The notes under the pieces are model-generated. The model saw only the letters and a program-made list of their open reading frames with translations, made no database searches and was not told the DNA's origin. Of a stretch of 64,000 nucleotides of DNA, positions 8,215 to 46,667 are shown piece by piece. Numbering within the stretch: the first letter of the stretch is position 1; each line of letters begins with the position of its first letter. This stretch comes from a virus. Both the position numbers and the translations under genes were made by a program. The DNA lies in IMG/VR virus record IMGVR_UViG_3300045988_162375, positions 746 to 64,745 of that record; one strand, 5' to 3'.

Positions 8215-8741
8215 CGGGAACTCGTCTAAGCGAGTCTAAACAGATCTTTAAGCTTAGAGCGTCTCTGGTCTTTATGACCAGAGGGTAGATAGAAGAAATT
8301 TAGATTTATAAAAATTTTAAATTTCTTATAAATTTATTATTATTGTGTTAATATTAACCCACCTAATTATAAATAATATGGAAGAATTTTGAATTCGGAA
8401 ATATAATACTTAAAGGTGGGGCGGAGGATATGGCCAGTTCCCTTGAGACAGTGCCATATTCAAGTATGTTATCTAGTCAATAATGTACTTCAGAGAAGGT
8501 TTTATACGCTCTGTTCCATTGTGCTATCAAGCCTTAACCCGACTTAAACTTAGTCTATGGGACTTTGATCGGTCCCATAGGCTCTTATGTGGTAGTGATT
8601 GCCGCGTTACTTCAATTTTGTTCATAGTGTTATTACTCTCTTCGAAATTGCCACATCTTGCAAGATCTGAGGGTTTGGTTGCAATCCAAGAAGCAGAAGA
8701 AAGAAAATGGTTATAAACTAAGTATTTCAAGCAACAACGTC

Positions 8742-11571: not shown

Positions 11572-11644
11572 AGAGCTATAGTATTTATAGGTAAGTACAC
11601 TACTCTGAGGAGTAGAGATAGAGGTTCAAATCCTCTTAGCTCTC
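11572..11644 (+). tRNA. tRNA-like gene with a non-canonical 6-nt anticodon loop (possible pseudogene)
   Basis: Perfect acceptor AGAGCTA/TAGCTCT and T arm AGAGG-TTCAAAT-CCTCT, but anticodon arm CTACT-CTGAGG-AGTAG has a 6-nt loop. Confidence 0.3.
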
Positions 11645-12205
11645 CAAGACTTTTAAAATTTGTATAATGGAAAAAGTGACACAAAATGTACCTGATACAG
11701 GTTGTACAGATCCTGATGAATTCGTGAATGACCCTTGTATCGAAGCCATAGAGGATGAAGAACTTCTTAACATAGAATAATATGTACATAATAACTTTAA
11801 TTTTAGGAATTGTAGGTGTCGTCCTTCTTGCTTTTGCAATCAGGGAAGATGAAGATGATCGAGCCTTCCCGTTGGGAATACTATCAGTAGTCTCTCTGAT
11901 ATGCTCAGTGATGCTCTGGTGCTATACTGACACCAAGCATGAACGAGAACAACCCTTAACAACAATTTCAACTTTTGTTGAGGAGCATTCTCAATATCTC
12001 TCTCCAACTACAGTGAGAACTATAAGTGCAGCACCTATTCGGAAAATACCTGATGGATGTTTCGTATATAATGTTATTCTGGTTGATCAGGATTCTATGT
12101 ATACGTATTCTGCAGTTCTGGACCCTGAGAACATTGAGGTAGTTAATTTTATTCTCGAAGAATCTATTCCTCGACTCGAAAATCATCAAAATAAAAAAAT
12201 AAACA

Positions 12206-22982: not shown

Positions 22983-22998
22983 CATTATAAATTTATAT

Positions 22999-23820
22999 TG
23001 CGGGGTAGAGCAGAGGCCAGCTCGTCAGCCTCATAACGGACTTATGTCTAAGATGAAGCTTGTCTACTTATTTATACGAACCTTTGTAAAGTTCGAAATT
23101 TTTTGTATATTTGTAGTATAAATTAATAATTAATACTATGAATAAATACTCAAAACAAGAACTAGAAACGTATATTTTAAAGGATAAACTTTCATATACA
23201 GCAATTGGAGGTATTTATGGAGTAACTGGAGCAGCAATAAAGAAAGCTGCTTTAAGGTATGGAATTATATTACCTAAAAAGAGAACCATAAATGCGAAAG
23301 AGAACTTTAGTCACAAAGGGAAATCTAAAGTAGACTCTTTTTCAGATTCAGAATTTATAGAAATTATTTCTAGTAACATTGGTTGGAAAAATATTGGATT
23401 TGCGCTGGGATATACTAACCGCCCATCAAGTGATGTTGTTTCAAATATAAAAAGTAGATGCTCGAAGTTAGGTATTGAGCCTATTATTGAACAACCTTCT
23501 CCAATACTATTTAAAACTAAGGGAGAATTATTATCTTCTAGAAAAAATTACCAAAGTTATAGAAGTTCTATTAGAAAACATGCTGAGTTAACCTATTTTA
23601 GATCAACTAAGGTTAAAAAATGTGCAATATGTGGATATGATAAACATATAGAAATTGCACATATTAAATCAGTAGCAGAGTTTGATGATTCTGTAACAAT
23701 TGCTGAAATCAATTCCGTTGATAATCTCATAGCTTTATGCCCTAACCATCATTGAGAATACGATAATGGATTGATTACGATATAAGCTGAAGGTCGGGGG
23801 TTCGAATCCCTCTCCCGCTA
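22999..23820 (+). tRNA. Split initiator-like tRNA(CAT): 5' part 22999-23036, 3' part 23786-23820, interrupted by a ~750-nt insertion encoding an HNH endonuclease
   Basis: 5' part TGCGGGG-TA-GAGCAGAGGCCAGCTC-G-TCAGC-CTCATAA closely resembles bacterial tRNA-fMet including the 1:72 mismatch; 3' part GCTGA-AGGTC-GGGGG-TTCGAAT-CCCTC-TCCCGCT-A supplies the complementary anticodon-stem strand, T arm and acceptor strand. Confidence 0.5.
23138..23755 (+). CDS. HNH homing endonuclease (inside the split tRNA(CAT))
   Basis: 205 aa; C-terminal HNH motifs (CAICGYDKHIEIAHIKS...LIALCPNHH); paralogous to the two HNH ORFs at 28.7 and 29.7 kb; contains no TGA. Confidence 0.65.
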   Translation: MNKYSKQELETYILKDKLSYTAIGGIYGVTGAAIKKAALRYGIILPKKRTINAKENFSHKGKSKVDSFSDSEFIEIISSNIGWKNIGFALGYTNRPSSDVVSNIKSRCSKLGIEPIIEQPSPILFKTKGELLSSRKNYQSYRSSIRKHAELTYFRSTKVKKCAICGYDKHIEIAHIKSVAEFDDSVTIAEINSVDNLIALCPNHH

Positions 23821-23878
23821 GAGTATACAGATAGTATACCTCCACGTGGTTATACTCGGGTAACGCTAAATTACTATC

Positions 23879-24523
23879 ATGGTTTGCATATATCGTATAA
23901 TAAATAAAATAAATAATAAACAATATGTAGGTAAAACTACAGTAGGAATCTGAAGAAGATGAAAGACTCACATAAGGGATTGTGAGAAAAGGGAAGAAGA
24001 AAGTCGTCCGCTGTATAGAGCTTTTCACAAGTATGGAATTTCTAATTTTAGAATTGAAATTTTAGAAGAATGCACTTTAGAAAAGTTATCAGAAAGGGAA
24101 ATCTATTGGATAAGTAAGCTTAATACTTATAAATTTGGGTATAACGCTACCAAGGGTGGAGATGGTTCACAGCTGTACAATTATGAGGAAATAGTAGCTC
24201 TTTATAAAGAAGTAAAGTATGTATGTAAAGTTGCAGAAATTGTGCAATGTTCAACCGATACTGTTAGTAAATGCTTAAAACTTTATCAAATTCCAGTATA
24301 CCATCATTTATCAGGTAATGTTAATTCTCCAAGAAAGATTCAGCAGTACTCTTTAGAAGGTGATTGATTATGTGAATTTAATTCAGTGCAGGAAGCTGCG
24401 GAGTGATTATATAATAATGGAAAGGTTAAAACTTTGAGTTCTGGAGTCCGAGGTCATATATCGGATGCCGCTAGAGGTAAAATAAAATCCGCATATAAAT
24501 ACACATGAAAATATAAACAATAA
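23879..24523 (+). CDS. GIY-YIG homing endonuclease, 215 codons with 5 in-frame TGA
   Basis: N-terminus MVCIYRIINKINNKQYVGKTT (GIY-YIG), YWISKLNTYKFGYN; track shows no ORF here because the gene is broken by TGA codons. Confidence 0.55.
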
Positions 24524-24591
24524 GGTGTCAAACAGCAAACTTTTACAATCGAATGACTTTTAATCATTAAATGATGTAGGGATACCTTTCT

Positions 24592-25516: not shown

Positions 25517-25607
25517 CTGGGTATGGAGGAGTCAGGTCAACCTCGCTGGTTTTGGGAACCAGAGCAAGCTGTAATGGCGGGCGCAAGTTCGAATCTTGCT
25601 ATCCAGA
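25517..25607 (+). tRNA. tRNA with anticodon TGG (Pro-like, G37) but an unusually long (~20 nt) variable region, 91 nt
   Basis: Acceptor CTGGGTA/TATCCAG, D arm GAGG-AGTCAGGTCAA-CCTC, anticodon arm CTGGT-TTTGGGA-ACCAG, T arm GCAAG-TTCGAAT-CTTGC. Confidence 0.4.
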
Positions 25608-25623
25608 CAATATTTAAAAATAT

Positions 25624-27342: not shown

Positions 27343-27422
27343 GGCCCTGTAAGCAAATTGGTAAAGCTGCTTATATATTCTAGGTTCATAAGTGTGTGGA
27401 GGTTCGAATCCTTCCATGGCCA
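27343..27422 (+). tRNA. tRNA-like gene with a 13-nt anticodon loop (anticodon undetermined)
   Basis: Acceptor GGCCCTG/CATGGCC, U8, D arm AGC-AAATTGGTAA-GCT, stem CTTAT/ATAAG enclosing ATATTCTAGGTTC, T arm GGAGG-TTCGAAT-CCTTC. Confidence 0.3.
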
Positions 27423-27522: not shown

Positions 27523-27609
27523 GCGGGTATGGCGCAATTGGTAGCGCAGAGCACTTTTAATGCTAAGGGAGCCGAAAGGCCGTTCAGGGTTCAAGTCCCT
27601 GTGCCCGCA
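27523..27609 (+). tRNA. Type-II-fold tRNA (19-nt variable arm, A73) with anticodon loop CTTTTAA (TTT, Lys-type)
   Basis: Acceptor GCGGGTA/TGCCCGC, D arm GCGC-AATTGGTA-GCGC, anticodon stem GAGCA/TGCTA (one mismatch), variable GGGAGCCGAAAGGCCGTT, T arm CAGGG-TTCAAGT-CCCTG. Confidence 0.45.
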
Positions 27610-27801
27610 CTATTTTTTGGATATATAAAATAAAGTTATTATCTTTGTAACACAAGGTTACTTCAGCAAGCTTCTTCTACTGAATTGTATTTTGTTGAAC
27701 AGCGATCTGGGTTCGAGTCCCAGTTATAGGAAACTTCAGGGCTGAGAAGTACTATAGTCGTCTAATGGTAGGATGTAAATTAGAGTAACCTAGCCCAATA
27801 T

Positions 27802-27885
27802 GTACAGATGGCCGAGTGGTCGATGGCACAAGACTGTTAATCTTGCAGATTTATCTCACCGTAGGTTCGATTCCTGCTCTGTACG
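27802..27885 (+). tRNA. Ser-like type-II tRNA (G73, 15-nt variable arm) with anticodon loop CTGTTAA (GTT, Asn-type; one change from Ser GCT)
   Basis: Acceptor GTACAGA/TCTGTAC, D arm GCC-GAGTGGTCGAT-GGC, anticodon arm CAAGA-CTGTTAA-TCTTG, variable CAGATTTATCTCACC, T arm GTAGG-TTCGATT-CCTGC. Confidence 0.5.
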
Positions 27886-27903
27886 CTTAAACTTTAATGA
27901 AAA

Positions 27904-28576: not shown

Positions 28577-28648
28577 GAGGTATTGGTGTTAGTGATAGCA
28601 TATGTGACTTCCAATCACAAGGGGAGAGTTTGAATCTCTTATACCTCT
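28577..28648 (+). tRNA. tRNA-Gly(TCC)
   Basis: Acceptor GAGGTAT/ATACCTC, anticodon arm TGTGA-CTTCCAA-TCACA, T-loop TTTGAAT. Confidence 0.75.
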
Positions 28649-28683: not shown

Positions 28684-29418
28684 ATGAAACGTTTTAAAGA
28701 ACTTTCAGATGATATAATCAGAACTGTGTGAAATAACAGTAAAAGTTTGTTTGAAATTTGTAAAAAGTTAGAAATTCATGATAATATTTCTAATAGAAAT
28801 AAATTAAAAGAATGGGCAGTTAAAAATAAAGTGGAGATTCCTGTTACTAACATACTTACAAAAGATAGTTATGAAAAGAATCCTAAACTATGTAAACAAT
28901 GCGGAAGTGCAATTTCATGAAGTAAGAGAGCCAATGACTTTTGTTCCCATTCATGCAGTGCTACATATATAAATTTAAAAAGAGGCGCTAAGTCAAGTGG
29001 TAAGTATGTTCGTGGTGCTACTTCTATCTGTGTAAATTGTGGAAATGTAGTACCTGCAAGAAATCAATATTGTAATCACAAATGCCAAGCTGAATATGCC
29101 TACAAGGAATTTATCAAACGCTGAAAAGAAGGTAAAGAATTAGGAATGGCAGGTGAAGATGGATTATCTGCACATATTCGACGATATTTATTAGAGAAGG
29201 CTAATTATACCTGTGAAATTCCAGGATGTGGATGTAATTTCATTAATTCTTATACTAATTTATCCATTCTTCAGGTACATCATATTGATGGAGATGCAAC
29301 TAACAATAAAGAAGAAAATCTCCAGGTTTTGTGTCCAAATCATCATGCAATGACTGAACATTTTGGATCAAGGAATAAAAATAGTACTAGACGATATCGA
29401 TACTCTAAAAATAAATAG
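28684..29418 (+). CDS. HNH endonuclease, free-standing between tRNA genes, ~245 codons with 3 in-frame TGA
   Basis: Frame from MKRFKELSDDIIRTV-W-NNSK... runs through 3 TGA into track ORF 29146-29418 (HHIDGD...NLQVLCPNHH); N-terminus paralogous to the 23138 HNH. Confidence 0.55.
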
Positions 29419-29644: not shown

Positions 29645-29726
29645 GCCTCCTTGGCACAGCGGCGACTGCAACGGTTTTGTAATCCGTCTTCATTTGAACG
29701 CGTCGGTTCGAGTCCGACAGGAGGCT
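29645..29726 (+). tRNA. tRNA with 14-nt variable arm and anticodon region TTTTGTAAT (TGT by canonical numbering, ambiguous)
   Basis: Perfect acceptor GCCTCCT/AGGAGGC, T arm GTCGG-TTCGAGT-CCGAC, variable CTTCATTTGAACGC, anticodon stem ACGG(T)/(T)CCGT with a 31-39 mismatch. Confidence 0.4.
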
Positions 29727-29742
29727 CTAAAATACTATAATT

Positions 29743-30309
29743 ATGAAACAATCAAAATATGATTATAATTTATTAAATAAATGAATTAATGAGGAGAATC
29801 TCAGTTATGAAGAAATAGGTCGTAAGTATGGAGTTACTGGGAATGCTATTAAGAAAGCAGCTAAACGTATTGGTGTTACTTTAACTCCTAGGAAAGCTCT
29901 AAAGACTCTTAAGAGTGTAAGAATCAGGAAATGTATAAATTGTGACAAAGTGCTCGATTATACCGCTGCTAAATTTTGTTCAAAACACTGTCAATGAGAT
30001 TTCCAATACAAAAAATATATTTCTTTGTGAAAAAGTGGCAAAGTAAACGGAATTACTGGGAAAGCTGATATTTCATCACATGTTAGACGTTATTTATTTG
30101 AAAAATACCATTCAAAATGTCAAATATGTGGATGATCTCAAATAAATCCTGTAACTGGTAAGATCCCTTTACAAATTCATCATATAGATGGAGACTGTTT
30201 AAATAATAAAGAAAATAATCTTCAATTGTTGTGCCCTAATTGCCATTCTTTAACTTCAACTTTTGGAAGTCTAAATCCCAATAGTAAAAGGAGTTACAGA
30301 AGACATTAA
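29743..30309 (+). CDS. HNH endonuclease, free-standing, 189 codons with 4 in-frame TGA
   Basis: MKQSKYDYNLLNK-W-INEENLSYEEIGRKYGVTGNAIKKAAKRIGV..., C-terminal HHIDGD...LLCPNCH; paralog of the 23138 and 28684 genes. Confidence 0.55.
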
Positions 30310-32940: not shown

Positions 32941-32956
32941 CTAATTTATATTGACA

Positions 32957-33426
32957 TGAAAATTGTAGATAATTTTATATTCTTCTGGGGAGGTTGGTTA
33001 AGTAACTTTCATCCTTGTAGAATAGTATTTGGCTCTAAAGTTTTTAAATCATCTGAACAGCTTTTTATGTATCTTAAAGCTTTGCATTTTGGTGATATAG
33101 AAACAGCAGAGAGGATTCTATTAGCAGAGACTCCAAAGGAAGCTAAAACCCTTGGTAGGGAGGTTAGAAACTTTGATGAAAAATCCTGGAATGAGGTTAA
33201 GATTCAGAAAATGTATCTTGCCTTGGAAGGTAAATTTAGCCAAAATAAAGATTTAATGGATAAACTTAAAGACCCAGCATTAAATGGGAAATTCTTTGTT
33301 GAAGCATCCCCCTTTGATAGAGTCTGGGGTATAGGCTATGATCAAGATCATGCACTTCAAAACCAATCAAATTGGGGAGAAAATCTACTTGGTAAGACTC
33401 TTACCTTTTACAGAGGATCTTTATAA
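32957..33426 (+). CDS. NADAR (YbiA-like) domain protein
   Basis: FFWGGWLSNFHPC...FKSSEQLFMYLKALHFGD...PKEAKTLGREV...ASPFDRVWGIGY match NADAR family conserved blocks; track start 32878 overlaps tRNA-Tyr, so start moved to ATG ~32957. Confidence 0.6.
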
Positions 33427-33433
33427 ACAATTT

Positions 33434-33470
33434 GCGGATATTGACATCGCTCAATATCCGCTTTATTTTT
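33434..33470 (+). terminator. Rho-independent terminator
   Basis: GCGGATATTGA-CATCGC-TCAATATCCGC followed by TTTATTTTT. Confidence 0.55.
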
Positions 33471-33483
33471 AAAACTTAATAAG

Positions 33484-35175
33484 ATGTTTGAAGCAAAAAA
33501 GAAAACATTATTTGCTGTTGATAGCAGTAAATCGGCATCTAAATCAGCCTTTATTCAGGCAGGATTAAAAACTGCAGCAGAAACCACTACAGGTAACGGT
33601 GGTAAAGCCTATTCCAGTACAGGGGATCCCTTCGTTGACCAGTTTGGTAGTACATCTAAGTACAGAGAGATTCGCCCATTTGCAGAAATTGCAAAAGATT
33701 GTGAAATTCTCTGGGCAGAAAATAAAGAAGATACTGTTAAATTTATCTTTTTCTTGCGAATGATTTGTCGTAAGATTAATGATAAAGAGTATGGTACCAA
33801 AGAAGCACAGAAGGGTTCTGAACTTCGTCATGAAGGTATTATGCGTCTCATCTGGCTGCATATCAAAGATAAAGAAGTGTTCTGGAAGAATGCTTGGTTG
33901 ATTCCCTTAGTGGGTTCTTGGAAAGATCTCTTCGTTATGCTTCGTTATGACTTAGTTTATAACGGCTGGGAACACCGAGTTCTGGATTGGCGCCGTTTTG
34001 CAGATCTGATTACTGCTGGCCTTAGTTCTGATTCCCAAACGAATCTTCTTCGTAAGTATCTTCCTCAGATCAAGGCACATTCCAAGTGTACTACAGTAGA
34101 GGCACAAGCAAATTGTATGATTGCAAAATGGCTGTGTTCAGAACTTTACGGTGCGTCAGGAGCAAAGACAGATGCTGAAAAGTATCAGGTATATCGTTCT
34201 TATGCAAAGATGAAAGCCGCAGGGACAGCACATAGCTGGCAACAGCTTATTTCAAAGCAACGATATACAGAGATTGACTTTGATAAGATTCATGGTCGTG
34301 CCTTAAACCTTCTTGTACACTCCAAGTTCTTAGAGAATCATAATCTCAAAGAGAAGTATCAGGAATGGATAGGAGCTCCAGAGACAAAGAAGGTGAAGTA
34401 CACAGGTTTTGTACATGAGCTCTTTAAACCTATTTGTAACACTGCTCCTTATAATATAGAGCAGCATATCAAAGATACTATTAATAAGCAGTTTATGACT
34501 CTTGTTAATAAGTGTAAGGAAGAGGGCAATACTACAGATCTAATTGTAGTACGTGATACTTCTGGTTCAATGGGTGCAGAAGCAACTGGAACTTCCATGT
34601 CTTGTTACAATGTAGGTAAGGCAATTGCTCTGTATTTCTCTTACTTCTTGAGAGGAAGGTTTCAAAATGCATGGATTGAGTTCAACTCGAAAGCTATGAT
34701 GCATGAGTGGAAAGGAGAAACTCCTCTGGAAAAATGGTTTAATGACCATTCAGGGTACTATGGAAGTACAAACTTTGAGGGTGTTATTAACCTCTTTACT
34801 CAGTTGAAACTTGAAGGTGTTCCAGAAGAGGAATTTCCTAAAGGAATTCTTTGTATCAGTGATTGTGAGTTTGATGCTTCAAGTCTGAATAAGACTTCAG
34901 TTGAAAGAGTTCATGATACATTGACAGCTGCAGGATTTTCTAAAGAGTATGTTGATAATTTTGTCATTTGCCTTTGGAATTTGAGAAATGATTACTACGG
35001 ACATAATGTACAAAATCGTGTTCCATTCCAAACTTATGGTGACGTCAAGAATGTCTACTATATGTCTGGATATTCAGCACAGATTGTATCTTTCTTAAAT
35101 GGGAAGGTGCAGACTACACGGGATCTGTTTGATGAGGCTATGAATCAAGAGATTCTGTCTCTCATTAAGATGTAA
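33484..35175 (+). CDS. vWA-domain protein with N-terminal helical domain (Ro60/TROVE-like or DUF2828-like architecture)
   Basis: 563 aa; C-terminal MIDAS-type motif LIVVRDTSGSMGAEATG; large N-terminal alpha-rich domain. Confidence 0.45.
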   Translation: MFEAKKKTLFAVDSSKSASKSAFIQAGLKTAAETTTGNGGKAYSSTGDPFVDQFGSTSKYREIRPFAEIAKDCEILWAENKEDTVKFIFFLRMICRKINDKEYGTKEAQKGSELRHEGIMRLIWLHIKDKEVFWKNAWLIPLVGSWKDLFVMLRYDLVYNGWEHRVLDWRRFADLITAGLSSDSQTNLLRKYLPQIKAHSKCTTVEAQANCMIAKWLCSELYGASGAKTDAEKYQVYRSYAKMKAAGTAHSWQQLISKQRYTEIDFDKIHGRALNLLVHSKFLENHNLKEKYQEWIGAPETKKVKYTGFVHELFKPICNTAPYNIEQHIKDTINKQFMTLVNKCKEEGNTTDLIVVRDTSGSMGAEATGTSMSCYNVGKAIALYFSYFLRGRFQNAWIEFNSKAMMHEWKGETPLEKWFNDHSGYYGSTNFEGVINLFTQLKLEGVPEEEFPKGILCISDCEFDASSLNKTSVERVHDTLTAAGFSKEYVDNFVICLWNLRNDYYGHNVQNRVPFQTYGDVKNVYYMSGYSAQIVSFLNGKVQTTRDLFDEAMNQEILSLIKM

Positions 35176-35183
35176 ACTTAATA

Positions 35184-35215
35184 GGCTCTAGTAGAAATAC
35201 TAGAGCCTTTTTATT
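35184..35215 (+). terminator. Rho-independent terminator
   Basis: GGCTCTAGTA-GAAA-TACTAGAGCC followed by TTTTTATT. Confidence 0.55.
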
Positions 35216-35645
35216 AATAATCTAATTATGGGTAAGTACCTTAAAGATTATCAAATTCCTGATTATTGCGAGGAGGATAAACCTAGAATGCCAAAGCGGC
35301 CTAAGAAGTTTAAAGACCAAGAGGGAGGAAAACCTTTAGTAAAGAAAAAGTTCAAGCGATGAAGAGATGATTCTTAAGAGTATTTAGAAGGTTTAATGAA
35401 CCATCAACTGATAGTTCAAAAGAATTTCCTAAAAAAGTAATTGACTTAGAACAATTTGACGATGTATTCATAGTTACTAATAAAAAAGTATATAAGGCCT
35501 GGGTTATGAAAAGAACCAGTAGACTTTTACAGATTTTTATTTGGGAGTCTAAAAAGGAGGTAATTATAAATACAATTGGACAAGCTAATTCTAGTGTTAT
35601 TCCTTTTGGCAAGGATAGCTATTTAATTATAAATAAAAAAGATAT

Positions 35646-36227
35646 ATGCGATTACTTGTAGTAGTTGATATGCAAGAAGACTTCATCAGAGGTGCATTAA
35701 CGGTTCCTGGTGCTGAAGAAATAATTTCTCCTATAGAGAAATTAGTTAAAGAGTATATAACAGCAGATGATGCTGTCCTTTTTACTCGGGATACTCATTA
35801 TGAGCATAGTGATACTAGGGGATTCAGCTATGCTATGACTCGTGAAGGTAGAAATCTTCCAATTCTTCATTGCGTTTGTGGAACTGAAGGTCATAAGCTT
35901 ATTAAGGAATTTAAGCCTTATCTTCGTTCCTGCTATGTAATGGATAAACTAAATAGGTTTGGATTTATCCAGGATGAGTTTAATGATGCCAAGATAGATG
36001 ATGGAGAATATTTATTCGACATCGCTGATTGCATTACAGAAATTACTTTGGTTGGTGTAGTAACTAATCTTTGTGTTATTTCATGTGCTGTAAGTTTTCA
36101 GCAAATATTCCCTGATGCAGATATCATCATAGATGCTTCCTGCTGTCGTTCCAATAACAATGAACTTCATAACAAAGCTTTAGATGTTATGGAGGGTTTA
36201 CAAATGACTATAATTAATCGTTATTAA
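35646..36227 (+). CDS. pncA: nicotinamidase / isochorismatase-family cysteine hydrolase (PncA-like)
   Basis: N-terminal LLVVVDMQEDF (catalytic Asp), TNLCVISC (catalytic Cys), 193 aa. Confidence 0.55.
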   Translation: MRLLVVVDMQEDFIRGALTVPGAEEIISPIEKLVKEYITADDAVLFTRDTHYEHSDTRGFSYAMTREGRNLPILHCVCGTEGHKLIKEFKPYLRSCYVMDKLNRFGFIQDEFNDAKIDDGEYLFDIADCITEITLVGVVTNLCVISCAVSFQQIFPDADIIIDASCCRSNNNELHNKALDVMEGLQMTIINRY

Positions 36228-36228
36228 T

Positions 36229-37713
36229 ATGTTTAAACCTTGTGGAGCTCTACTGACTGATTTTTATAAGCAGGATCACCAGCGTCAATATGACCCTAGC
36301 ATCACTAAGGTAGTTTCTTACTATGTACCTCGTAAAACTAGGATTCCTGAATTTGATAAGGTAGTAGTTTTTGGTATTCAAGCATTTATTGAGGAGTATC
36401 TGATTGAGTACATGAATGAAACTTTCTTTAACCGTCCCTTAGAAGAAGTTATTGCAGAATATGAATTTGTGATTTCTTCTACTATGGGAGCAGACCGTGT
36501 TAACTCGGATAAAATTAAAAACCTTCATGAATTAGGATATCTTCCTATCGAAATTTGGGCACTTCCTGAGGGATATAAAGTAGGAATGAATATCCCCTGT
36601 ATCGAGATTTCTAATACTAATCCAGAATTTGCATGGTGTACTAATTTCATTGAAACCTTGATGCTCTCTGAGCTTTGGTATCCAATGTGTGTTGCAACTG
36701 CTGTAACTAAATATCGTAGTATCGTAAATGATTTTTATTCTAAAACTTCTGATATTTCTGGTCGTTCTGCTATTTCTGAGTTCGGATTTAGAAGTTTAGT
36801 TGGACTTCATGGTGCTATTAAAGCTTCGTGTGGATTTTTGCTCTCTTTTAATAAGACTGCGACTATTCCTGGCATTATGTATGCTTCAAAGTATTATCAT
36901 ACCCCAATGTCTGTAGTAGGTGGAGGTATGGCTTCTACTGAGCACTCCGTAATGTGTAGTTCTGCTGCCATTGATGGGGATGAAAAAGTTATGATTCGAC
37001 GCCTCCTTACTGAGGTCTATCCTAATGGATCATTCTCTATGGTAAGTGATTCCTATGATTACTGGAATGTTGTCGATGAGATTCTCCCATCTCTTAAGGA
37101 AGAAATTCTCAGTAGAAATGGTACTTTGTATGTTCGTGGTGACTCTGGAGATCCTGTAGAAATTGTAACTGAGACGGTTTTTTCTCTTTGGGAGACTTTT
37201 GGAGGCACTGTCAACTCTAAGGGATATAAAGTCTTAGACCCTCATGTTCGAGCTTTATATGGTGATGGCATCACTCAGTTACGTGCAAAACAGATTTATC
37301 AGATTTTGTATGATAAAGGATTCTCTGCAGAGAATGTTGCACTTGGTGCAGGAGGATTTTCCATGCTTTCTTACATGGATGAGTTTGGGAATGTAGATAT
37401 GTTCTCTCGCGATACATTTAATGTAGCAATTAAATGCAGCTATGTAGAACAAACCATTGATGGAAAAACTAAATCTATCATGGTCTACAAAGATCCTAAA
37501 ACGGATTCAGGAATGAAGAAATCCCACAAAGGATGTTGTGCTGTTTTCTACAACCATGTAACTGGTGAGTTTGATTGTGATGAAGGTATGACACTGAAAG
37601 AAGCTCATAATGAGCCTTTCAATTTACTTCGTCCTATCTTTTCAGATGGAAAAATGAGAGAGCAAACTACTCTCACAGAAATTCGTAGAACTCTTTGGAA
37701 CGGGAAATTCTAA
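36229..37713 (+). CDS. NAMPT/NAPRT-family phosphoribosyltransferase (NadV or PncB, or Namat-like)
   Basis: 494 aa; N-terminal LLTDFYKQDHQRQYDP characteristic of the nicotinamide/nicotinate PRTase family. Confidence 0.55.
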   Translation: MFKPCGALLTDFYKQDHQRQYDPSITKVVSYYVPRKTRIPEFDKVVVFGIQAFIEEYLIEYMNETFFNRPLEEVIAEYEFVISSTMGADRVNSDKIKNLHELGYLPIEIWALPEGYKVGMNIPCIEISNTNPEFAWCTNFIETLMLSELWYPMCVATAVTKYRSIVNDFYSKTSDISGRSAISEFGFRSLVGLHGAIKASCGFLLSFNKTATIPGIMYASKYYHTPMSVVGGGMASTEHSVMCSSAAIDGDEKVMIRRLLTEVYPNGSFSMVSDSYDYWNVVDEILPSLKEEILSRNGTLYVRGDSGDPVEIVTETVFSLWETFGGTVNSKGYKVLDPHVRALYGDGITQLRAKQIYQILYDKGFSAENVALGAGGFSMLSYMDEFGNVDMFSRDTFNVAIKCSYVEQTIDGKTKSIMVYKDPKTDSGMKKSHKGCCAVFYNHVTGEFDCDEGMTLKEAHNEPFNLLRPIFSDGKMREQTTLTEIRRTLWNGKF

Positions 37714-38483
37714 TGAAAGAAGTATATGAAGGAATAGTTTCCTTTCTTAAGAATTATCAAGAACGTACCCATGTGAAAGGGTATGTTCTTGGTATTTCTG
37801 GAGGAAAGGATTCTACTGTAGTGGCCAAATTATTGGTAGATTCTATAGGTAAGGAAAATGTATTAGGTGTGCTAATGCCTAATGGTAAGCAAGCTGATAT
37901 TGAGGATAGTTATACAGTATGTGACTTTCTTGATATTAACTATACTGTTGTTAATATAGAAAATGCGTTTGATGAACTTATTCATCAAATTGATGTTTCG
38001 AAAATAACTACAGTGGAAGGGAATGAAGAAAACATTCCAGTAACGGAAAAGGCTCTTACTAATGTTCCTCCTCGTATTCGTATGACTATTCTATATACTA
38101 TAGCTCAGTCTGTAGGATATCGAGTAGCGGGGACTAGTAATGCTTCAGAATTATTTATTGGTTGGGGAACTAAATGGGGAGATTTGGCATCTGATATTAA
38201 TCCTATTTCTCAATTAACATGTTCTGAAGTTATTTCTTTAGGAGACTATATGGGACTCCCATATGATCTTATACATAAGACTCCTGCAGATGGATTAACA
38301 GGAAAGTCTGATGAAGAAAATTTTGGTTTTACATATAAAGAACTTGACACTCTTATTGTAAAGCAGCGAAATCTTACTTGCACAGGTAGAATACAATGTG
38401 CTTTTACTGAACAAGAATTAAAAATCTTAAAATTACATGAAGCTGCGTATCACAAAGATCATGTAATTAAAATACATTATTAA
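37695..38483 (+). CDS. nadE: NH3-dependent NAD+ synthetase (NadE-like PP-loop ATP pyrophosphatase)
   Basis: PP-loop YVLGISGGKDSTVVAKLL; 262 aa. Confidence 0.6.
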   Translation: MEREILMKEVYEGIVSFLKNYQERTHVKGYVLGISGGKDSTVVAKLLVDSIGKENVLGVLMPNGKQADIEDSYTVCDFLDINYTVVNIENAFDELIHQIDVSKITTVEGNEENIPVTEKALTNVPPRIRMTILYTIAQSVGYRVAGTSNASELFIGWGTKWGDLASDINPISQLTCSEVISLGDYMGLPYDLIHKTPADGLTGKSDEENFGFTYKELDTLIVKQRNLTCTGRIQCAFTEQELKILKLHEAAYHKDHVIKIHY

Positions 38484-38484
38484 T

Positions 38485-39375
38485 ATGGGAAGCGGATCAT
38501 GGAGTTCTAACACATATAAAGCTTTTGCTGATAGCTATACTAAAAAATCCAGAGAAGAAATCTTTCATCAAAGATCTCTACACGAAGAAATGGATCTTAC
38601 AAAAAGTAAGACGCATATTCGAGAATCTAGAGATTCTGAGGAACACCCAGAATCTCTTCCAGTTTTCATTGCATTAGATGAAACTGGTTCAATGGGCTCA
38701 ATTCCTGATAAGATGATCAGGGATTATCTTCCGAAGTTAATGGATTCTATTATTGATTCTATTGGAGTTAAACACCCTCAAATTCTTTTTATGGGAGTAG
38801 GAGATCATGAATGTGATTACTGCCCGTGTCAGGTAGGTCAATTCGAATCTTCAACTGTTGCAATTAATCAATGTCTCTCTAAAATCTATTTGGAGGGTCG
38901 TGGTGGAGGTAATAGTGGAGAATCCTACTTACTTCCTTGGATTATTGCAGGAAATCACACGTCAATTGATAGCTGGGAAAAGCGAAAGCAAAAAGGATTC
39001 CTTTTTACAGTTGGTGATGAACCTACTTTGACAAGAATAAGTAGGGGAACTTTGGCATCCCTCACTGGAATGGAGTATGAGCGTGATTATACCTGGCAGG
39101 AGGCTTATGAACTTGCCTGTGAGAAATATCATGTGTTTCATATCCATGTTCGACATGGAAGTGAACATTATGATGAGGTAGTAGCTAAACAAATGAAAGA
39201 AATTCTTAGAGAAAACTTTATTGTGTGTAAACCTGATGAAGTTGTAGAAGCCATTTGTGAAGCTATGGGTAAAACTCTAAAAGGTAGCTCTTCAGTAATT
39301 GAAGAGGTTTCTGCAGAAAAAACTGTAGAAAATACAGAATCAAAACCTAATATATTTGACATACATCGACGATAA
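38485..39375 (+). CDS. hypothetical protein, possible vWA-like fold
   Basis: 296 aa; motif VFIALDETGSMGS resembles a MIDAS variant. Confidence 0.3.
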   Translation: MGSGSWSSNTYKAFADSYTKKSREEIFHQRSLHEEMDLTKSKTHIRESRDSEEHPESLPVFIALDETGSMGSIPDKMIRDYLPKLMDSIIDSIGVKHPQILFMGVGDHECDYCPCQVGQFESSTVAINQCLSKIYLEGRGGGNSGESYLLPWIIAGNHTSIDSWEKRKQKGFLFTVGDEPTLTRISRGTLASLTGMEYERDYTWQEAYELACEKYHVFHIHVRHGSEHYDEVVAKQMKEILRENFIVCKPDEVVEAICEAMGKTLKGSSSVIEEVSAEKTVENTESKPNIFDIHRR

Positions 39376-40469
39376 TGTATAATATTGTAGTGGGTTGTAC
39401 GTTTGGCGACGAGGGTAAGGGTCAAGTGACTCATGCCCTTTGTTGCGACGCTAAAAGAAAGCGTTTAAAACCTCTGGTTGTTAGATTTTCTGGAGGGCAT
39501 CAAGCAGGGCACACAGTAACTACTTCATCTGGAACAATGCATATATTTTCTTGCTTTGGATCTGGAACATTTGCTGAAGCACCTACCTATTGGATGAAGC
39601 AATGTGTTATGGATCCACTACAATGGATGCGGGAACGAGAGGAGTTGGATTTCTTAGGATGTAATATCCCTATCCAATATTTTGATCCATATGTACAAGT
39701 AACAACTCCTTTTGACGTAATGCTGAATTCTGAAAGGAGTAAAGGTTTTACAGTAGGAAAAGGGATATGGGAGACTGTTCAGAGACAAAGAGAAGGACTA
39801 GCTTTATATGTAAAAGATTTAGCTTTTCCTCAAGTTGTAAAAATGAAGCTCCGATTAATTAGAGAATGGGCGGAAGATAGACTCCAGTTTAAGGAAACTT
39901 ATTCAAGATTTGCTCATGTTTTCGATAACTTAGATTCTTTAGTACATACTTATTGTAAGATTTTTTATCCCAATATAGTATTGGAGGATACGTTATCTAA
40001 ATTAGCATGGAAAGAAAAGACTTCTGTGATATTTGAGGGTTCTCAAGGAGTACTTTTGGACCCTAATATTGGATTTTCACATGAATATACTACCCCACTT
40101 CCATGTTGTCCATCGTGGGACAATCTCCCATTCTTTTTAAGTGATGATCAACTAATATTTAATTTTGTATATAGATCTTATTTAACAAGACATGGTAAAG
40201 GGCCTGTTGGAGGTTCTATATTCAAGGAGATTAATAATCCTTATGAAACAAATTTAAATAATCCTTTTCAAGGGGAATTTCAAACTTATGAATTCAATAA
40301 GGAATTAGTCTTGTATGGAATTGATCATGTTAAATCACACTTTAATCCTGAATATAAGGTAAGGTTGATTGAAACATGTTGTGACATATGTGCAGGACAT
40401 GACTTAGGAATCCCTTATAATTACTCTATCAAAACCTGCAAAAAGAATTTTGACTCTGTATGCAAATAA
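39375..40469 (+). CDS. Adenylosuccinate synthetase homolog, short form (PurA-like, or possibly PurZ-like)
   Basis: N-terminal VGCTFGDEGKGQV and VVRFSGGHQAGHTV match the PurA P-loop/GDP-binding signatures; 364 aa, shorter than bacterial PurA (~430 aa). Confidence 0.55.
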   Translation: MYNIVVGCTFGDEGKGQVTHALCCDAKRKRLKPLVVRFSGGHQAGHTVTTSSGTMHIFSCFGSGTFAEAPTYWMKQCVMDPLQWMREREELDFLGCNIPIQYFDPYVQVTTPFDVMLNSERSKGFTVGKGIWETVQRQREGLALYVKDLAFPQVVKMKLRLIREWAEDRLQFKETYSRFAHVFDNLDSLVHTYCKIFYPNIVLEDTLSKLAWKEKTSVIFEGSQGVLLDPNIGFSHEYTTPLPCCPSWDNLPFFLSDDQLIFNFVYRSYLTRHGKGPVGGSIFKEINNPYETNLNNPFQGEFQTYEFNKELVLYGIDHVKSHFNPEYKVRLIETCCDICAGHDLGIPYNYSIKTCKKNFDSVCK

Positions 40470-41281
40470 TTAACTTTTTATACCCAGAAAAGTCAGAAAT
40501 AAAGTATCGAATTGATACTTATCCTGATTCTCAATCTCATCTTGTACTTGAGTCTGAAATGGATAGACGAAAGTCTTTGTCGATATATACTAGACTGTCC
40601 AATTTGAATGATATTTGGATCCTAATGCAATTAGCTGATATTTGTCATCGTCAAGGTATCCAGATTTCCTTTTTACGAATAGCTTATTTATTTGCAGCAC
40701 GAACTGATAGATTATTTTCTTTTAACGAAGCATTAGATTTGGAGCTTGTTAAAAAATGTCTTATCTTTGTACAAGCAGATCAAATTCTAATATTAGATCT
40801 TCATTCTAATCGTTTAATTGTAGAAGGAATAGGTGATAATGATTGGCCTACATTTTTTACCTTAAACCCAGGTTTTAATATTCCAGAGAGTATTTTATTC
40901 CCTGATGAAGGCGCTTATCATCGTTACAGTGAGCTTTTAGACTTTAATATAAAATATCGTACTACAACGTATGTTGCTACAAAGCATAGGATCTCAAGGG
41001 ATAAGTTAGAGGTAAAATTACCTTCTGAAATAAAGCCAAATACTTCTATTCTAGTTTTTGATGATTTATGTGATGGTGGGGGAACTTTCTTTGCAATTCA
41101 TAAAGCATTACAAGATATGGGAGTAACTGATGTGCATTTACGTGTTACGCATGCTATCCAAAAAGAACCTTTAGTAAAGTTATCAAAACTTTACAAAACA
41201 ATAACAATTACCAATTCTTATAAGGATTGGGATAAAGAAGAACTTCCAAACAATATAAAAGTAATAAGAGTTTATGAATAA
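40460..41281 (+). CDS. Ribose-phosphate pyrophosphokinase (Prs) family protein; possibly an ADPR-PP synthetase-like enzyme
   Basis: Prs motifs LRIAYLFAARTDR (cf. PYFGYARQDR), DLHS, LFPDEGA, ILVFDDLCDGGGT (PRPP-binding loop). Confidence 0.55.
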   Translation: MQIINFLYPEKSEIKYRIDTYPDSQSHLVLESEMDRRKSLSIYTRLSNLNDIWILMQLADICHRQGIQISFLRIAYLFAARTDRLFSFNEALDLELVKKCLIFVQADQILILDLHSNRLIVEGIGDNDWPTFFTLNPGFNIPESILFPDEGAYHRYSELLDFNIKYRTTTYVATKHRISRDKLEVKLPSEIKPNTSILVFDDLCDGGGTFFAIHKALQDMGVTDVHLRVTHAIQKEPLVKLSKLYKTITITNSYKDWDKEELPNNIKVIRVYE

Positions 41282-41624
41282 ATTTAATGAAATTCTGAGT
41301 GCTACTGGAACTGCGGTACTCAAGAAACGTGCTGAAATCATCAATGCTGATGCCCGCGAAGCAGCTAAGGATCAGGTTAATCTCATTGAGAAAGAGATTC
41401 GTCAGATTAAGTCCAAGATTATGAATCTGGAGGATCTGTCGATTAAATCGACCGAATCACTGGTTGTAGGTACGGATTTTAAGGCAGATGAGTGGGTAAC
41501 TCAGATGTTCAAGCTTCGTGATGACTTGCGCAACGCTGAAATCTGTCTGGAAATTGCTCAGAATATTTATAATGAGTATTTCACGGAACTTCCTGAAGTA
41601 GACTGTGATAAGAAAGCAGAATAG
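41274..41624 (+). CDS. hypothetical coiled-coil protein
   Basis: 116 aa. Confidence 0.3.
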   Translation: MNKFNEILSATGTAVLKKRAEIINADAREAAKDQVNLIEKEIRQIKSKIMNLEDLSIKSTESLVVGTDFKADEWVTQMFKLRDDLRNAEICLEIAQNIYNEYFTELPEVDCDKKAE

Positions 41625-41631
41625 CTTCATA

Positions 41632-41652
41632 GGCGGATTTACTCCGCCTTTT
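41632..41652 (+). terminator. Rho-independent terminator-like hairpin
   Basis: GGCGGA-TTTAC-TCCGCC followed by TTTTAA. Confidence 0.45.
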
Positions 41653-41654
41653 AA

Positions 41655-41728
41655 GGGCCCTTAGCTCAATTGAATAGAGCATCTGACTACGAATTAGAAG
41701 GTTACAGGTTTGAGTCCTGTAGGGCCCA
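41655..41728 (+). tRNA. tRNA-Arg(ACG)
   Basis: Acceptor GGGCCCT/AGGGCCC, D arm TAGCTCAATTGAATAGAGC, anticodon loop CTACGAA, T arm ACAGG-TTTGAGT-CCTGT. Confidence 0.75.
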
Positions 41729-41924
41729 CATATGAAAACTGTTTTATATAGAATACAATCAATTGAAGCCCCAGAAAATGAAGGGTTTCGGTATGGCTCA
41801 TTAAGAACACTATCTAAGACAAAGGTAGATGAAGAAATGTGCTTAAGGAATGAGTTTGGAAGTCATTATCTAATTAATGTTCCAGATTATTGAATTTGTG
41901 AGATTTTAAAAGAAATAGAAGAAG

Positions 41925-42986
41925 ATGATGTATAGTTTAGATGAAATAGGTATTTTACCTAGTTCAAAAGCCACGGATATTACAAGTCGTAGTGAGTGTA
42001 GTCCTTTAGGAGACTTAGGAACATATCCTATTTTTGTTTCTCCTATGACATCCGTTATTGATGAATCAAATTATCAACTTTTTACAAAGGCTGATGTGCT
42101 TCCAATTATTCCAAGACGTGTAGATAATTTACAGTTTAGACTTAATGCATGTAACCATGTTTGGTGTGCATTTAGTTTAAAGGAATTTGAAACATTCTTT
42201 TGTGAAGGAGAACCTTCTGATGAGTGTCCTCTGGTACTTATTGATATGGCTAATGGCCACATGAAGAAAATTTATGACCTGGTTAAGAAGGCTAAGGAAA
42301 AGTGGAGCACGATTATTATCATGGTAGGTAATATAGCTCATCCAGATCTTTATTGGGAATGCTATGATGCAGGGGTGGACTATGTTCGTGTAGGTATTGG
42401 AACTGGCAGTGTATGTACTACAGGAGTAAAAACTGGAGTACATGCTTCTATGGAATGGCTATTGCAACAATTAGTTAAGCGTCGATCCATGATTAAAGAG
42501 TCTCCTAAACCTAAAAAGGCTCCAAAGATTATCGCAGATGGAGGAATTTCTACAATAGATCGAGCTATAAAGTGTTTAGCTTTGGGCGCCGATTATGTAA
42601 TGATGGGTAAAATGTTTGCTCAATGTAACGAAGCTTGTGGGTATGTTAGAACAAAGTGGCCAGATGATAATGATACTATACTTAAATATTTTGCATCTTT
42701 AACTAAAGCAGAAAGTGATCGAATCATTGAAGTGTATCCTAAAGAGCGATTATACTACGGAATGGCAAGTGAACGTGGTCAAAAGGATATTTCAAACACT
42801 AAAAAGGCCGAAGAAGGAATTGAAATTTGGGTTCCTGTTGAATATACTCTTGAATCTTTACTTTCTCAATTTGATTCTGCATTAAGGTCTGCTATGTCTT
42901 ATACAGGATGTAGGACTCTTGAAGAATTCAAAAATGTAAAATGGGAGTATATGTCTCCCTCTGAAAGAAATGCTTATTACAAATAA
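41925..42986 (+). CDS. GMP reductase / IMP dehydrogenase-family enzyme (GuaC-like)
   Basis: 353 aa TIM-barrel; catalytic-Cys loop VGIGTGSVCTTGVKTG and C-terminal KIIADGGISTIDRAIKCLALGADYVMMGKMFA match the IMPDH/GMPR family. Confidence 0.55.
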   Translation: MMYSLDEIGILPSSKATDITSRSECSPLGDLGTYPIFVSPMTSVIDESNYQLFTKADVLPIIPRRVDNLQFRLNACNHVWCAFSLKEFETFFCEGEPSDECPLVLIDMANGHMKKIYDLVKKAKEKWSTIIIMVGNIAHPDLYWECYDAGVDYVRVGIGTGSVCTTGVKTGVHASMEWLLQQLVKRRSMIKESPKPKKAPKIIADGGISTIDRAIKCLALGADYVMMGKMFAQCNEACGYVRTKWPDDNDTILKYFASLTKAESDRIIEVYPKERLYYGMASERGQKDISNTKKAEEGIEIWVPVEYTLESLLSQFDSALRSAMSYTGCRTLEEFKNVKWEYMSPSERNAYYK

Positions 42987-46656: not shown

Positions 46657-46667
46657 TAGAAAGGATG

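Follow-up and report, generated by a model that had tools for sequence, protein, structure and literature searches.

An initiator-like tRNA(CAT) gene of a gut bacteriophage is divided within its anticodon loop, between C34 and A35, by a mobile insert of 749 nt that carries an HNH endonuclease gene. The window, i.e. the whole stretch of DNA that was analysed, is 64,000 nt long. We consider it probable that the insert is a selfish, non-spliced disruption by a mobile homing-endonuclease cassette, leaving a "tRNA gene in pieces". As the insert shows no feature of a self-splicing intron, the tRNA must be dead unless some repair route exists that is not known from bacteria or phages. The main components of the locus are as follows.

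22999-23032, plus strand: 5' part of the initiator-like tRNA(CAT), tRNA positions 1-34 (read directly and by ARAGORN; equal to 8605-8638 of the sister phage L134).
23033-23781, plus strand: mobile insert of 749 nt, comprising the leader and the HNH ORF without the final coding base and the stop codon (from the L134 empty site and comparison of junctions between lineages).
23138-23785, plus strand: HNH endonuclease ORF of 215 aa, with an in-frame TGA (Trp) at 23753-23755 (PF13391, HNH_2).
23782-23820, plus strand: 3' part of the same tRNA, positions 35-73 (read directly and by ARAGORN; equal to 8639-8677 of L134).

The 5' part reads T-GCGGGG, a D arm with GAGC/GCTC, the anticodon-stem strand TCAGC and then CTC, contributing the loop bases C32, U33 and C34. 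The 3' part resumes with ATAA (A35 T36 A37 A38), followed by the stem strand GCTGA, the variable loop AGGTC, the T arm GGGGG-TTCGAAT-CCCTC, the acceptor strand TCCCGCT and the discriminator A. Joining the halves gives the loop CUCAUAA with a CAU anticodon, and the exon-exon sequence expected across the junction of a ligated mature tRNA(CAU) is GTCAGCCTCATAAGCTGAAGG. With its intron search, ARAGORN calls a tRNA-Met(cat) at 22998-23821 with an insert of 749 nt. Bacterial initiator tRNAs are identified by a CAU anticodon, a 1:72 mismatch, A11:U24 and three consecutive G:C pairs at 29-31:39-41. The mismatch (T and T) and A11:U24 (in the D stem GAGC/GCTC) are present here. The three consecutive G:C pairs were not found in the window, where the corresponding pairs are A29-U41, G30-C40 and C31-G39, and "initiator-like" is therefore the safe term. 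A GGG/CCC anticodon stem occurs in L006 and L311.

The bases ATAA stand at both junctions, making the boundary ambiguous over 4 nt from the window alone. When junctions are compared, C34|A35 is the only boundary that yields CAT in all lineages. A preliminary description of this locus had recognised an HNH gene lodged in the anticodon loop of an initiator-like tRNA(CAT), and this is borne out by ARAGORN, by direct reading and by the uninterrupted allele of L134. The two halves stand, but their limits, given there as 22999-23036 and from 23786, shift to 22999-23032 and 23782-23820 with the junction at C34|A35. The HNH assignment also holds, but the ORF had been ended at 23755 with 205 aa. The TGA at that point encodes Trp, being the invariant W206 of an HHW motif that is TGG in other lineages, and the frame runs on to 23785. 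Since it does so, the non-coding sequence of the insert is 105 nt rather than the ~130 nt first estimated; it lies entirely on the 5' side, where it forms the leader, and there is none on the 3' side.

The protein matches PF13391 with E 6e-12 over residues 162-215, and 41 sequences all share C162, C165, H175, N196, H204, H205 and W206. Its last codon, ATA, ends on A35 of the tRNA, and its stop TAA is T36-A37-A38. Gene callers using table 11 cut the ORF short at the TGA, and standard tRNA finders overlook such split genes. Homologues number 681 at E<=1e-10, and protein variants of the family run into the hundreds among gut and environmental phages. No relatives of the element were found among GenBank phages by DNA or by protein, and a search of solved structures gave only a marginal match, to the HNH domain of TagI. 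A fixed 6-residue tail ends the protein in 95 of the 120 best matches. We rejected this tail as proof of a split-tRNA location, as it also occurs beside intact tRNA-Met genes or with no tRNA part nearby.

Comparison with an intron-less homologue, suggested in the preliminary description, is provided by the sister phage L134. It has an uninterrupted tRNA at the same position that is 100% identical to both halves joined, and the upstream flank is 98.7% identical to that of the window over 1037 nt. The joined 27-mer GCTCGTCAGCCTCATAAGCTGAAGGTC is uninterrupted in 86 IMG/VR stretches. Together with the intact tRNA of L134, this rules out a chance resemblance as well as the idea that the halves are unrelated tRNA fragments. 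The cassette has also moved between alleles. L001 has this cassette, 98% identical, in another tRNA allele; between it and the window, identity is 98-100% through the upstream flank and cassette but 89.5% for exon 2 and about 88% beyond it, which places a breakpoint at the 3' junction. The interrupted gene is common to L022 and L326, whose flanks are unrelated. The cassette recurs at one exact nucleotide position in about 16 diverged tRNA-fMet alleles.

Free-standing homologues of the HNH gene lie directly upstream of an intact tRNA-Met in L003, L027, L032, L036, L329, L358, L367, L434, L439, L440 and L445, and downstream of one in L009-L019. The tRNA genes adjoining free-standing relatives have odd, long variable arms. 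In L025 and L003 such relatives sit between or beside tRNA-Met genes, which is consistent with the two parts being remnants of two different tRNA-Met genes, one on either side of a free-standing HNH gene. The leader moreover starts with the remainder of an anticodon loop (ATAA-C) and includes TTCGAAC, which resembles a T loop. The leader may be what is left of a tRNA 3' part, and might be a trace of how the arrangement first arose. Yet a single uninterrupted gene in L134 equals both parts joined, and in every intact lineage the stems pair across the insert with covariation. The empty site refutes a two-gene arrangement for the present-day element; overall we judge it exceedingly improbable, and possible only as an origin story.

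Group I introns are found in the anticodon loops of bacterial tRNA genes, including Synechocystis tRNA-fMet (with the PD-(D/E)XK endonuclease I-Ssp6803I), cyanobacterial tRNA-Leu(UAA) and Azoarcus tRNA-Ile. The 5' exon of a group I intron ends in U, which forms the U-G pair of P1, the intron ends in omega-G, and its P3-P9 core includes a guanosine-binding P7. Group I introns of bacterial tRNA anticodon loops have been reviewed (PMC3984707). The insert shares with them an anticodon-loop position, a homing-endonuclease ORF, and presence/absence polymorphism between close relatives. The favoured reading of the preliminary description was such an intron with its catalytic core overlapping the HNH coding sequence, and the combination of a tRNA-fMet-like gene with an internal endonuclease ORF does recall the Synechocystis intron. 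In the window, AUGA(AGCU) of the leader can pair with UCAU of the 5' exon in a P1-like manner, and three subfamily-A relatives can do so weakly.

The reading nevertheless fails on the boundaries and on the core. As the empty site of L134 and the CAT-giving junction indicate, the 5' exon ends in C34 and not U in all lineages. The boundaries have the form C|A...T|A in the lineages compared, and the insert lacks a terminal G, its last base being T in 16 of 17 lineages (in L022 it is A); its final 10 or more nt contain no G. Unlike the tRNA group I introns, the insert is filled by an ORF that reaches across the 3' junction and ends in the exon; there is thus no non-coding 3' segment and no room for P7-P9. 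The P7-type block AGACYACAAA is not in the insert, occurring only at 47266 in another intron. Subfamily B lacks the P1-like pairing, which we therefore rejected as a general feature. A covariance-model check, also proposed at the outset, covered 13 lineages and gave no match to Rfam Intron_gpI (RF00028), with a cut-off of E<=10 for the window and of E<=1 for the 12 others. Nor did any intron or ribozyme family of Rfam match within the insert of these 13 lineages, whether thresholds were gathering or permissive. Against an overall synonymous-codon identity of 0.56, the last 30 codons reach 0.65-0.73, and the first 20 are raised too. This is not strong constraint, and an RNA element hidden in the 3' end of the ORF was rejected because the rise is too weak for a catalytic core. 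The Rfam model is not fully sensitive: it found the group I intron of L046, our positive control, at 61 bits, and did not report that of L044, which presumably resembles the Azoarcus intron. Taking both sides together, we regard a group I intron as very improbable. Insertional disruption, the fallback named in the preliminary description, is the better supported reading, there being no U/G boundaries, no core and no Rfam match.

The window does contain a genuine group I intron, in a second split tRNA gene, tRNA(UCA) at 46667-47365. It was classed as such by its U...G boundaries and by the alignment of its 3' block with the introns of L046 and L044; Rfam gave no group I match for it, even with the 3' part alone.

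The leader of the HNH cassette folds into only three simple local hairpins, two of which appear in the consensus fold.

23038-23049, plus strand: leader hairpin 1, GGAC-TTAT-GTCT, directly 3' of the 5' junction (compensatory changes).
23077-23095, plus strand: leader hairpin 2, CGAAC...GTTCG, conserved in sequence (comparison of subfamilies B and A).
23114-23140, plus strand: leader hairpin 3, pairing the HNH start codon, ATG 23138-23140 (fold of the window).

Hairpin 1 is present in every lineage, with the compensatory variants CAGT/ACTG, CGG/CCG, CGGTG/CACCG and GAAGTAC/GTACTTT; in the RNAalifold consensus its pair 13:26 is A-U in eight sequences and G-C in five. Hairpin 2 is invariant in 13 subfamily-B sequences except for a change from C-G to U-G in two, and is found in subfamily A as well. 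On the opposite strand its TTCGAAC reads GTTCGAA, the motif of the T arm. Hairpin 2 was also considered as a terminator: a run of T lies 3' of it in subfamily B and not in subfamily A, and a consensus scan for terminators found none in the leader. Of 16 lineages, 13 have the HNH start codon base-paired in their minimum-energy fold, the stems differing in sequence. In phage T4, a hairpin masking the start region controls translation of I-TevI, and a similar regulatory role is predicted for the start-codon hairpin here, although I-TevI sits inside a true group I intron.

Two further elements follow the interrupted tRNA.

23821-23876, plus strand: candidate HDV-like (theta-type) ribozyme, beginning right after the tRNA discriminator (Rfam HDV-F-prausnitzii).
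23879-24523, plus strand: GIY-YIG homing-endonuclease ORF of 214 aa with five in-frame TGA codons (PF01541).

Ribozymes of the theta type have a nested double-pseudoknot fold, lie beside phage tRNAs and cut themselves at the 5' terminus. The candidate ribozyme scores 20.3 bits with E 0.6, below the gathering score of 44. L005 has the same core, CCTCCACGTGG...GGGTAACGCTAA, with P1 and P2 strands that by eye have changed compensatorily, and the element is missing from L134. HDV-like ribozymes of the theta type have been described as a family (PMC10879173). The match to PF01541 agrees with the earlier identification of a GIY-YIG endonuclease at 23879-24523; this ORF is missing as an indel from L134 and L002.

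The insert might instead be a ribozyme-free tRNA intron that is removed by a protein endoribonuclease and an RNA ligase, restoring a working initiator-like tRNA. The precursor would take the shape of a tRNA from whose anticodon loop the 749 nt protrude, cuts would be made before A at CUC|AUA and xU|AUAA, and a ligase of the RtcB type (for cyclic-phosphate ends) or the Rnl type (for 3'-OH/5'-P ends) would join C34 to A35. We think this unlikely, though with an appreciable probability; it would be new biology. Slightly less probable still is its full form, an intron of a kind new to bacteria and phages, in which an ORF-filled, ribozyme-free intron at 34/35 is cut at two N|AUA junctions, sealed by a ligase and provides a cost-free home for the HNH gene.

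Several observations argue for splicing by proteins. Across a deep HNH radiation, with identities as low as about 45%, some 16 diverged lineages retain two intact halves that complement each other; the anticodon stems, of which there are six kinds, and several variants of the acceptor, D and T stems all pair across the insert. The position of the junction does not vary, and A35 is always the final base of the last codon, with ATA in 9/9 Ile codons at this column compared with mixed ATT and ATA at others. The conserved, covarying hairpin 1 abuts the 5' junction. In 13 of 17 lineages both cuts would fall directly before AUA, as expected for the site of a sequence-specific RNase. Several anticodon nucleases cut at 34|35, and RNA-repair ligases of phages and bacteria seal breaks in anticodon loops. 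Four of our findings correspondingly count against disruption: the retained complementarity of the halves, the hairpin right at the 5' junction, whose role disruption leaves unexplained, the recurrent AUA, and the candidate 3'-processing ribozyme directly 3' of the interrupted tRNA in four lineages.

Against protein splicing, a Pfam search of 20 ORFs from the window revealed neither an RNA ligase nor a splicing endonuclease; the window is 64 kb of a roughly 150-kb genome, and such genes could be encoded outside it. In archaea, introns of tRNA and rRNA genes are cut at a bulge-helix-bulge, some are filled by an endonuclease ORF, and Nanoarchaeum has split tRNA genes. These introns provide the only known splicing model for such an insert, since they too contain no catalytic RNA, are largely ORF and are removed by proteins. 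But here the termini form no helix of the bulge-helix-bulge type. In 17 lineages, the first 50 nt of the insert pair with its last 50 nt at duplex energies that do not surpass those obtained after shuffling, and a bulge-helix-bulge was rejected on this ground; four exon bases lie between the 3' junction and the anticodon stem. The insert is moreover at 34/35 rather than 37/38, in a bacteriophage that reads TGA as Trp, and no EndA-like gene was found among the 20 ORFs searched. ACA or UUA replaces AUA at the 5' junction in four lineages, and L313 is without half of the leader. No ORF-less derivative of the insert was found when one was sought with the subfamily-B 5' junction pattern, and a gapped DNA pattern search of a metagenome collection gave no match; the 15-mer TTATGTCTAAGATGA proved too unspecific as a query. 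We know of no protein-dependent tRNA splicing in bacteria and their phages.

Decay of the tRNA also speaks against its repair. At least five lineages have a decayed tRNA remnant beside an intact HNH gene, which would be unexpected if the tRNA were useful. With the HNH ORF intact, the anticodon loop is lost in L026/L334, the 5' tRNA half is lost in L300/L459, only a tRNA remnant is left in L303, the T loop and stems are lost in two diverged relatives, L306/L461, and no tRNA remnant is found in L463. L343 has a 9-nt loop, but its HNH ORF is broken as well. The intact halves elsewhere can be accounted for by continual homing of the cassette into fresh, intact alleles, which needs no splicing, and equally well by selection on a restored tRNA. 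Compensatory exon differences between close copies of the cassette are no guide to selection after the insertion, since divergence is lower in the cassette than in the exon and flank downstream of it.

Disruption by a homing-endonuclease cassette thus remains our preferred reading. The cassette would consist of a 105-nt regulatory leader and the HNH_2 gene, sitting in the presumed cut site between C34 and A35. In a mixed infection the HNH enzyme would cut uninterrupted tRNA-fMet genes of related phages, and repair off the cassette-bearing genome would copy the cassette in. The interrupted allele would be immune, because its site is split. The leader may limit endonuclease production, mainly through the hairpin that hides the start codon, and the ORF would take the UAA of the anticodon loop as its stop. 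As there is no catalytic RNA, the interrupted gene most likely gives no working tRNA, and the remnants would decay afterwards. The loss would be tolerated because the host supplies initiator tRNA.

Free-standing homing endonucleases are known in phage tRNA clusters, such as SegB of T4 (GIY-YIG) and F-TflI/II/IV of T5 (HNH). By analogy, the HNH and GIY-YIG genes of this tRNA array may target the tRNA genes of related phages. Unlike those genes, however, the HNH gene lies inside a tRNA gene at a fixed nucleotide, with tRNA bases providing the last base of its final codon and its stop. Genes in pieces are exemplified by nrdA of phage Aeh1, split by mobE, and by topoisomerase genes 39/60 of T4, split by mobA. 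In these, as here, an endonuclease ORF lies directly in its target gene without a self-splicing element, and persists and spreads. The protein parts of nrdA and 39/60 assemble after translation, whereas a tRNA broken in its anticodon loop needs ligation in order to decode.

To our knowledge, homing-endonuclease genes have been thought to persist inside genes only by means of self-splicing introns, inteins or, rarely, split proteins that reassemble. If the tRNA is restored, these phages have a protein-dependent route of tRNA splicing not known in bacteria. If it is destroyed, this would be, as far as we know, the first "tRNA gene in pieces" to be described, and a clean system in which to study endonuclease drive against its cost and the counter-moves of its target. 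The long variable arms of tRNA genes beside free-standing relatives are one possible counter-move.

We searched the window for intron-containing tRNA genes using ARAGORN, which returned a tRNA-Met(cat) with a 749-nt insert at 22998-23821. Direct reading of the element gives the following features.

22999-23032, + strand: tRNA positions 1-34 (exon 1)
23138-23785, + strand: HNH ORF of 215 aa, reading through TGA at 23753
23782-23820, + strand: tRNA positions 35-73 (exon 2)

The two tRNA parts are one gene, because the uninterrupted joined 27-mer is present in 86 viral stretches and the sister phage L134 (98.7% identity to the window across the upstream kilobase) has in the same place an intact tRNA identical at every base to the two window parts put together. 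This comparison with intron-less homologues bears out the preliminary description of a split initiator-like tRNA(CAT). The tRNA has the initiator-like marks of a 1:72 mismatch, A11:U24 and CAU; in the window copy the three anticodon-stem G:C pairs are not present. The HNH ORF as first described (23138-23755, 205 aa) was too short. Its last codon ATA finishes on A35 and its TAA stop is T36-A37-A38, and the non-coding sequence of the insert is 105 bases rather than ~130 nt, entirely on the 5′ side. The protein is a member of Pfam HNH_2.

TGA is decoded as an amino acid, almost certainly Trp, since the invariant Trp of the HHW motif of the HNH protein is encoded by TGA in the window and by TGG in other lineages, the GIY-YIG ORF contains five in-frame TGA codons, and there are 48 in-frame TGA against 160 TGG in the 65 main + strand ORFs of the window.

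The window has a G+C content of 35%. Its tRNA genes number at least 24 and all lie on the + strand, with small ORFs between them. Matches of the window to GenBank phages are confined to short segments of two uncultured phages from the human gut, cr108_1 and cr111_1, which we take to be crAss-like. A metabolism block of nucleotide and NAD genes lies at 32956-42986. It contains a Pfam-confirmed NADAR domain (32956-33426) and a 563-aa DUF7788/DUF2828 protein (33484-35175). Judged by N-terminal sequence alone, the rest resemble nicotinamide phosphoribosyltransferase, NAD synthetase, adenylosuccinate synthetase, PRPP synthetase and IMP dehydrogenase/GMP reductase.

The junction in the window is ambiguous because ATAA stands at both ends of the insert. 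In four other split copies the insert starts with ACA (L006) or TTA (L020, L302 and L312), and ATAA invariably precedes the 3′ stem strand. Comparison of the sequences places the junction at C34|A35, the sole position that gives CAT in all these initiator-like bodies, and the insert is therefore (A/T)(T/C)AC...T, with a final A in L022. The empty site in L134 and two pairwise comparisons point to mobility of the cassette. The window and locus L001 share 98-100% identity in the upstream flank and cassette, against 89.5% in exon 2 and ~88% in the downstream flank, with the break in similarity located at the 3′ junction. L022 and L326 have 92% identity in the interrupted gene and nothing else in common. 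The exon differences are all compensatory (27:43 and 51:63 for the window and L001; 5:68 and 7:66 for L022 and L326). We rejected these as evidence of selection after insertion. Since divergence is lower in the cassette than in the exon and flank downstream of it, the best reading is that they are alleles of functional tRNA genes that existed before the cassette entered them.

It had been proposed that the insert might be a group I-like intron, which we now consider very improbable. The insert lacks two defining properties of such introns. The last base of the 5′ exon is C instead of U; the insert terminates in T, and its last 10 or more bases have no G. As there is no non-coding 3′ part, there is no place for P7, P9 or a terminal G. 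Rfam found no match to group I or other ribozymes in the insert at the gathering threshold or at E≤10 in the search of the window, nor in 12 other lineages at E≤1, and a 202-nt group I intron in the tRNA-Arg of L046 served as positive control (61 bits). No pairing of the insert termini with each other was found. Synonymous-site conservation is 0.65-0.73 in the last 30 codons compared with an average of 0.56, and is similarly mildly raised in the first 20. The insert likewise lacks the bulge-helix-bulge motif of archaeal introns.

Elsewhere in the window lies a genuine group I intron, assigned from its boundaries and alignment.

46667-47365, + strand: tRNA(UCA) split by a 605-nt group I intron
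46715-47221: PD-(D/E)XK_5 endonuclease (PF11645, Pfam) within that intron

T34 is the last base of the 5′ exon and G that of the intron. The last 60 nt of the intron align with the group I introns of L046 and L044, including GTCYAGACYACAAA, which occurs in the window only here; Rfam gives no report of this intron in the window. PF11645 is presumably the family of I-Ssp6803I, and we take the L044 intron to resemble that of Azoarcus. The tRNA(UCA) has a long variable arm and its anticodon reads TGA, so that the TGA-recoding tRNA must itself undergo splicing.

Overall, the 105-nt leader resembles a region that controls expression of the endonuclease gene, not a catalytic RNA. A consensus fold computed from 13 leaders of subfamily B has two hairpins only, and a third lies at the start codon. 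Hairpin 1 adjoins the 5′ junction and covaries. Hairpin 2 (CGAAC...GTTCG) is conserved in sequence, and its TTCGAAC is the reverse complement of the T-arm motif GTTCGAA. Possibilities for hairpin 2 are an RNA element, what is left of a tRNA 3′ part, or an operator that the enzyme binds and that imitates some of its target. In 13 of 16 lineages the start codon is paired within hairpin 3, whose stem sequences are unrelated from lineage to lineage. In phage T4 a start-codon hairpin delays synthesis of I-TevI.

The HNH family comprises 681 proteins at E≤1e-10. Loci fetched from IMG/VR, metagenomes and the assembly index (L numbers) fall into three arrangements.

HNH inside the same split tRNA, leader subfamily A: window, L004, L312, L314, L465
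HNH inside the same split tRNA, leader subfamily B: L006, L020, L022, L023, L302, L304, L308-L311, L313, L323, L326
Free-standing HNH ending a few bases 5′ of an intact tRNA-Met: L003, L027, L032, L036, L329, L358, L367, L434, L439, L440, L445
Free-standing HNH downstream of an intact tRNA-Met: L009-L019
Intact HNH, tRNA parts decayed or absent: L026/L334, L300/L459, L303, L306/L461, L463

The split arrangement spans ~16 diverged lineages with protein identity as low as ~45%. In L343 the HNH ORF is broken and the tRNA parts are decayed too. Among 53 distinct ORF variants with the typical 6-residue tail, 23 are intact split copies, 8 are partial and 9 lie directly 5′ of an intact tRNA-Met, the remainder having remnants or nothing. 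The most widespread cassette variant sampled, L456/L457 (protein cluster P0079, at least 24 contigs), has a CCC|ATAA loop, with C33 replacing the nearly universal U33, in an otherwise intact tRNA. Searches of GenBank phage records found no relative of the element.

Two more HNH ORFs lie between tRNA genes of the window, at 28684-29418 and 29743-30309. In its N-terminal helix-turn-helix segment (LSYEEIGRKYGVTGNAIKKAAKRIG) the latter matches the split-tRNA HNH, but its nuclease domain is different (HNH/HNH_3). The motif (A/G)NACAGCAA, e.g. GTCAAACAGCAAAC, is intergenic and follows closely on tRNA genes in many contigs that are unrelated to each other (window ~24527-24545; downstream of tRNAs in L002, L004, L023, L302, L310, L311 and L312); it could be a promoter or processing signal.

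Long variable arms are found on tRNA species that normally lack them, and further tRNA-like matches lie in the window.

25517-25608, 27523-27610, 27802-27886, 29645-29727, 43175-43260, + strand: tRNA-Pro, Lys, Asn, Thr and Arg(tct) with long variable arms (such arms also in L003, L025, L038)
11572-11645: tRNA-like gene with two-base anticodon "ga" in ARAGORN, i.e. an odd anticodon loop (Rfam 49 bits), kept in L134 at 383-456
27343-27422 and 28577-28648: tRNA matches with no ARAGORN call (Rfam 44 and 50 bits)

The tRNA-Met genes beside free-standing HNH relatives have long variable arms as well. One idea is that the extra arm shifts the DNA spacing between anticodon loop and T arm, and so shields the gene from the endonuclease. 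tRNA-Pro is 75 nt in L134 and 92 nt in the window, but the alleles differ throughout.

Two ribozyme matches were obtained in the window.

23821-23876: candidate HDV-like (theta-type) ribozyme (Rfam 20.3 bits, E 0.6)
8220-8290: pistol ribozyme (73 bits; gathering 34.5)

The pistol ribozyme lies between small ORFs, upstream of a tRNA-Glu at 8742. The HDV-like candidate begins one base past the tRNA discriminator, and is also directly 3′ of the split tRNAs of L005, L006 and L022. The window and L005 have a common core with flanking helices that differ compensatorily. L134 and L002 are without both this candidate and the GIY-YIG gene.

On balance we favor a disruption of the tRNA that is not spliced. 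Excision by a protein, restoring the tRNA, is the less likely course. In favor of a restored tRNA, many halves are intact and mutually complementary, the junction is conserved exactly with a hairpin sitting at it, AUA follows both cuts in most lineages, and in four lineages the candidate HDV-like ribozyme is positioned for a 3′-end cut. Yet catalytic RNA is absent, neither a splicing enzyme among the scanned window ORFs nor an ORF-less derivative was found, and at least five lineages have decayed tRNA parts with the HNH intact. These include L306 and L461, diverged relatives that have their tRNA decay in common.

The element behaves like a homing-endonuclease gene, every test of that family that could be run having agreed. 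Among known systems the split-tRNA element is closest to endonucleases that stand free in phage tRNA clusters and to endonuclease-split protein genes. In the literature we found no description of a ribozyme-free endonuclease ORF directly in a tRNA anticodon loop; a preprint on Lak megaphages (10.1101/356790) refers to short tRNA introns as "enigmatic", and introns go unmentioned in the paper on theta ribozymes (PMC10879173). For a non-spliced element, repeated homing into fresh alleles would generate the intact split copies, and decay would give rise to the remaining copies. Such homing and decay is the life cycle expected for a selfish endonuclease gene with a dispensable target.
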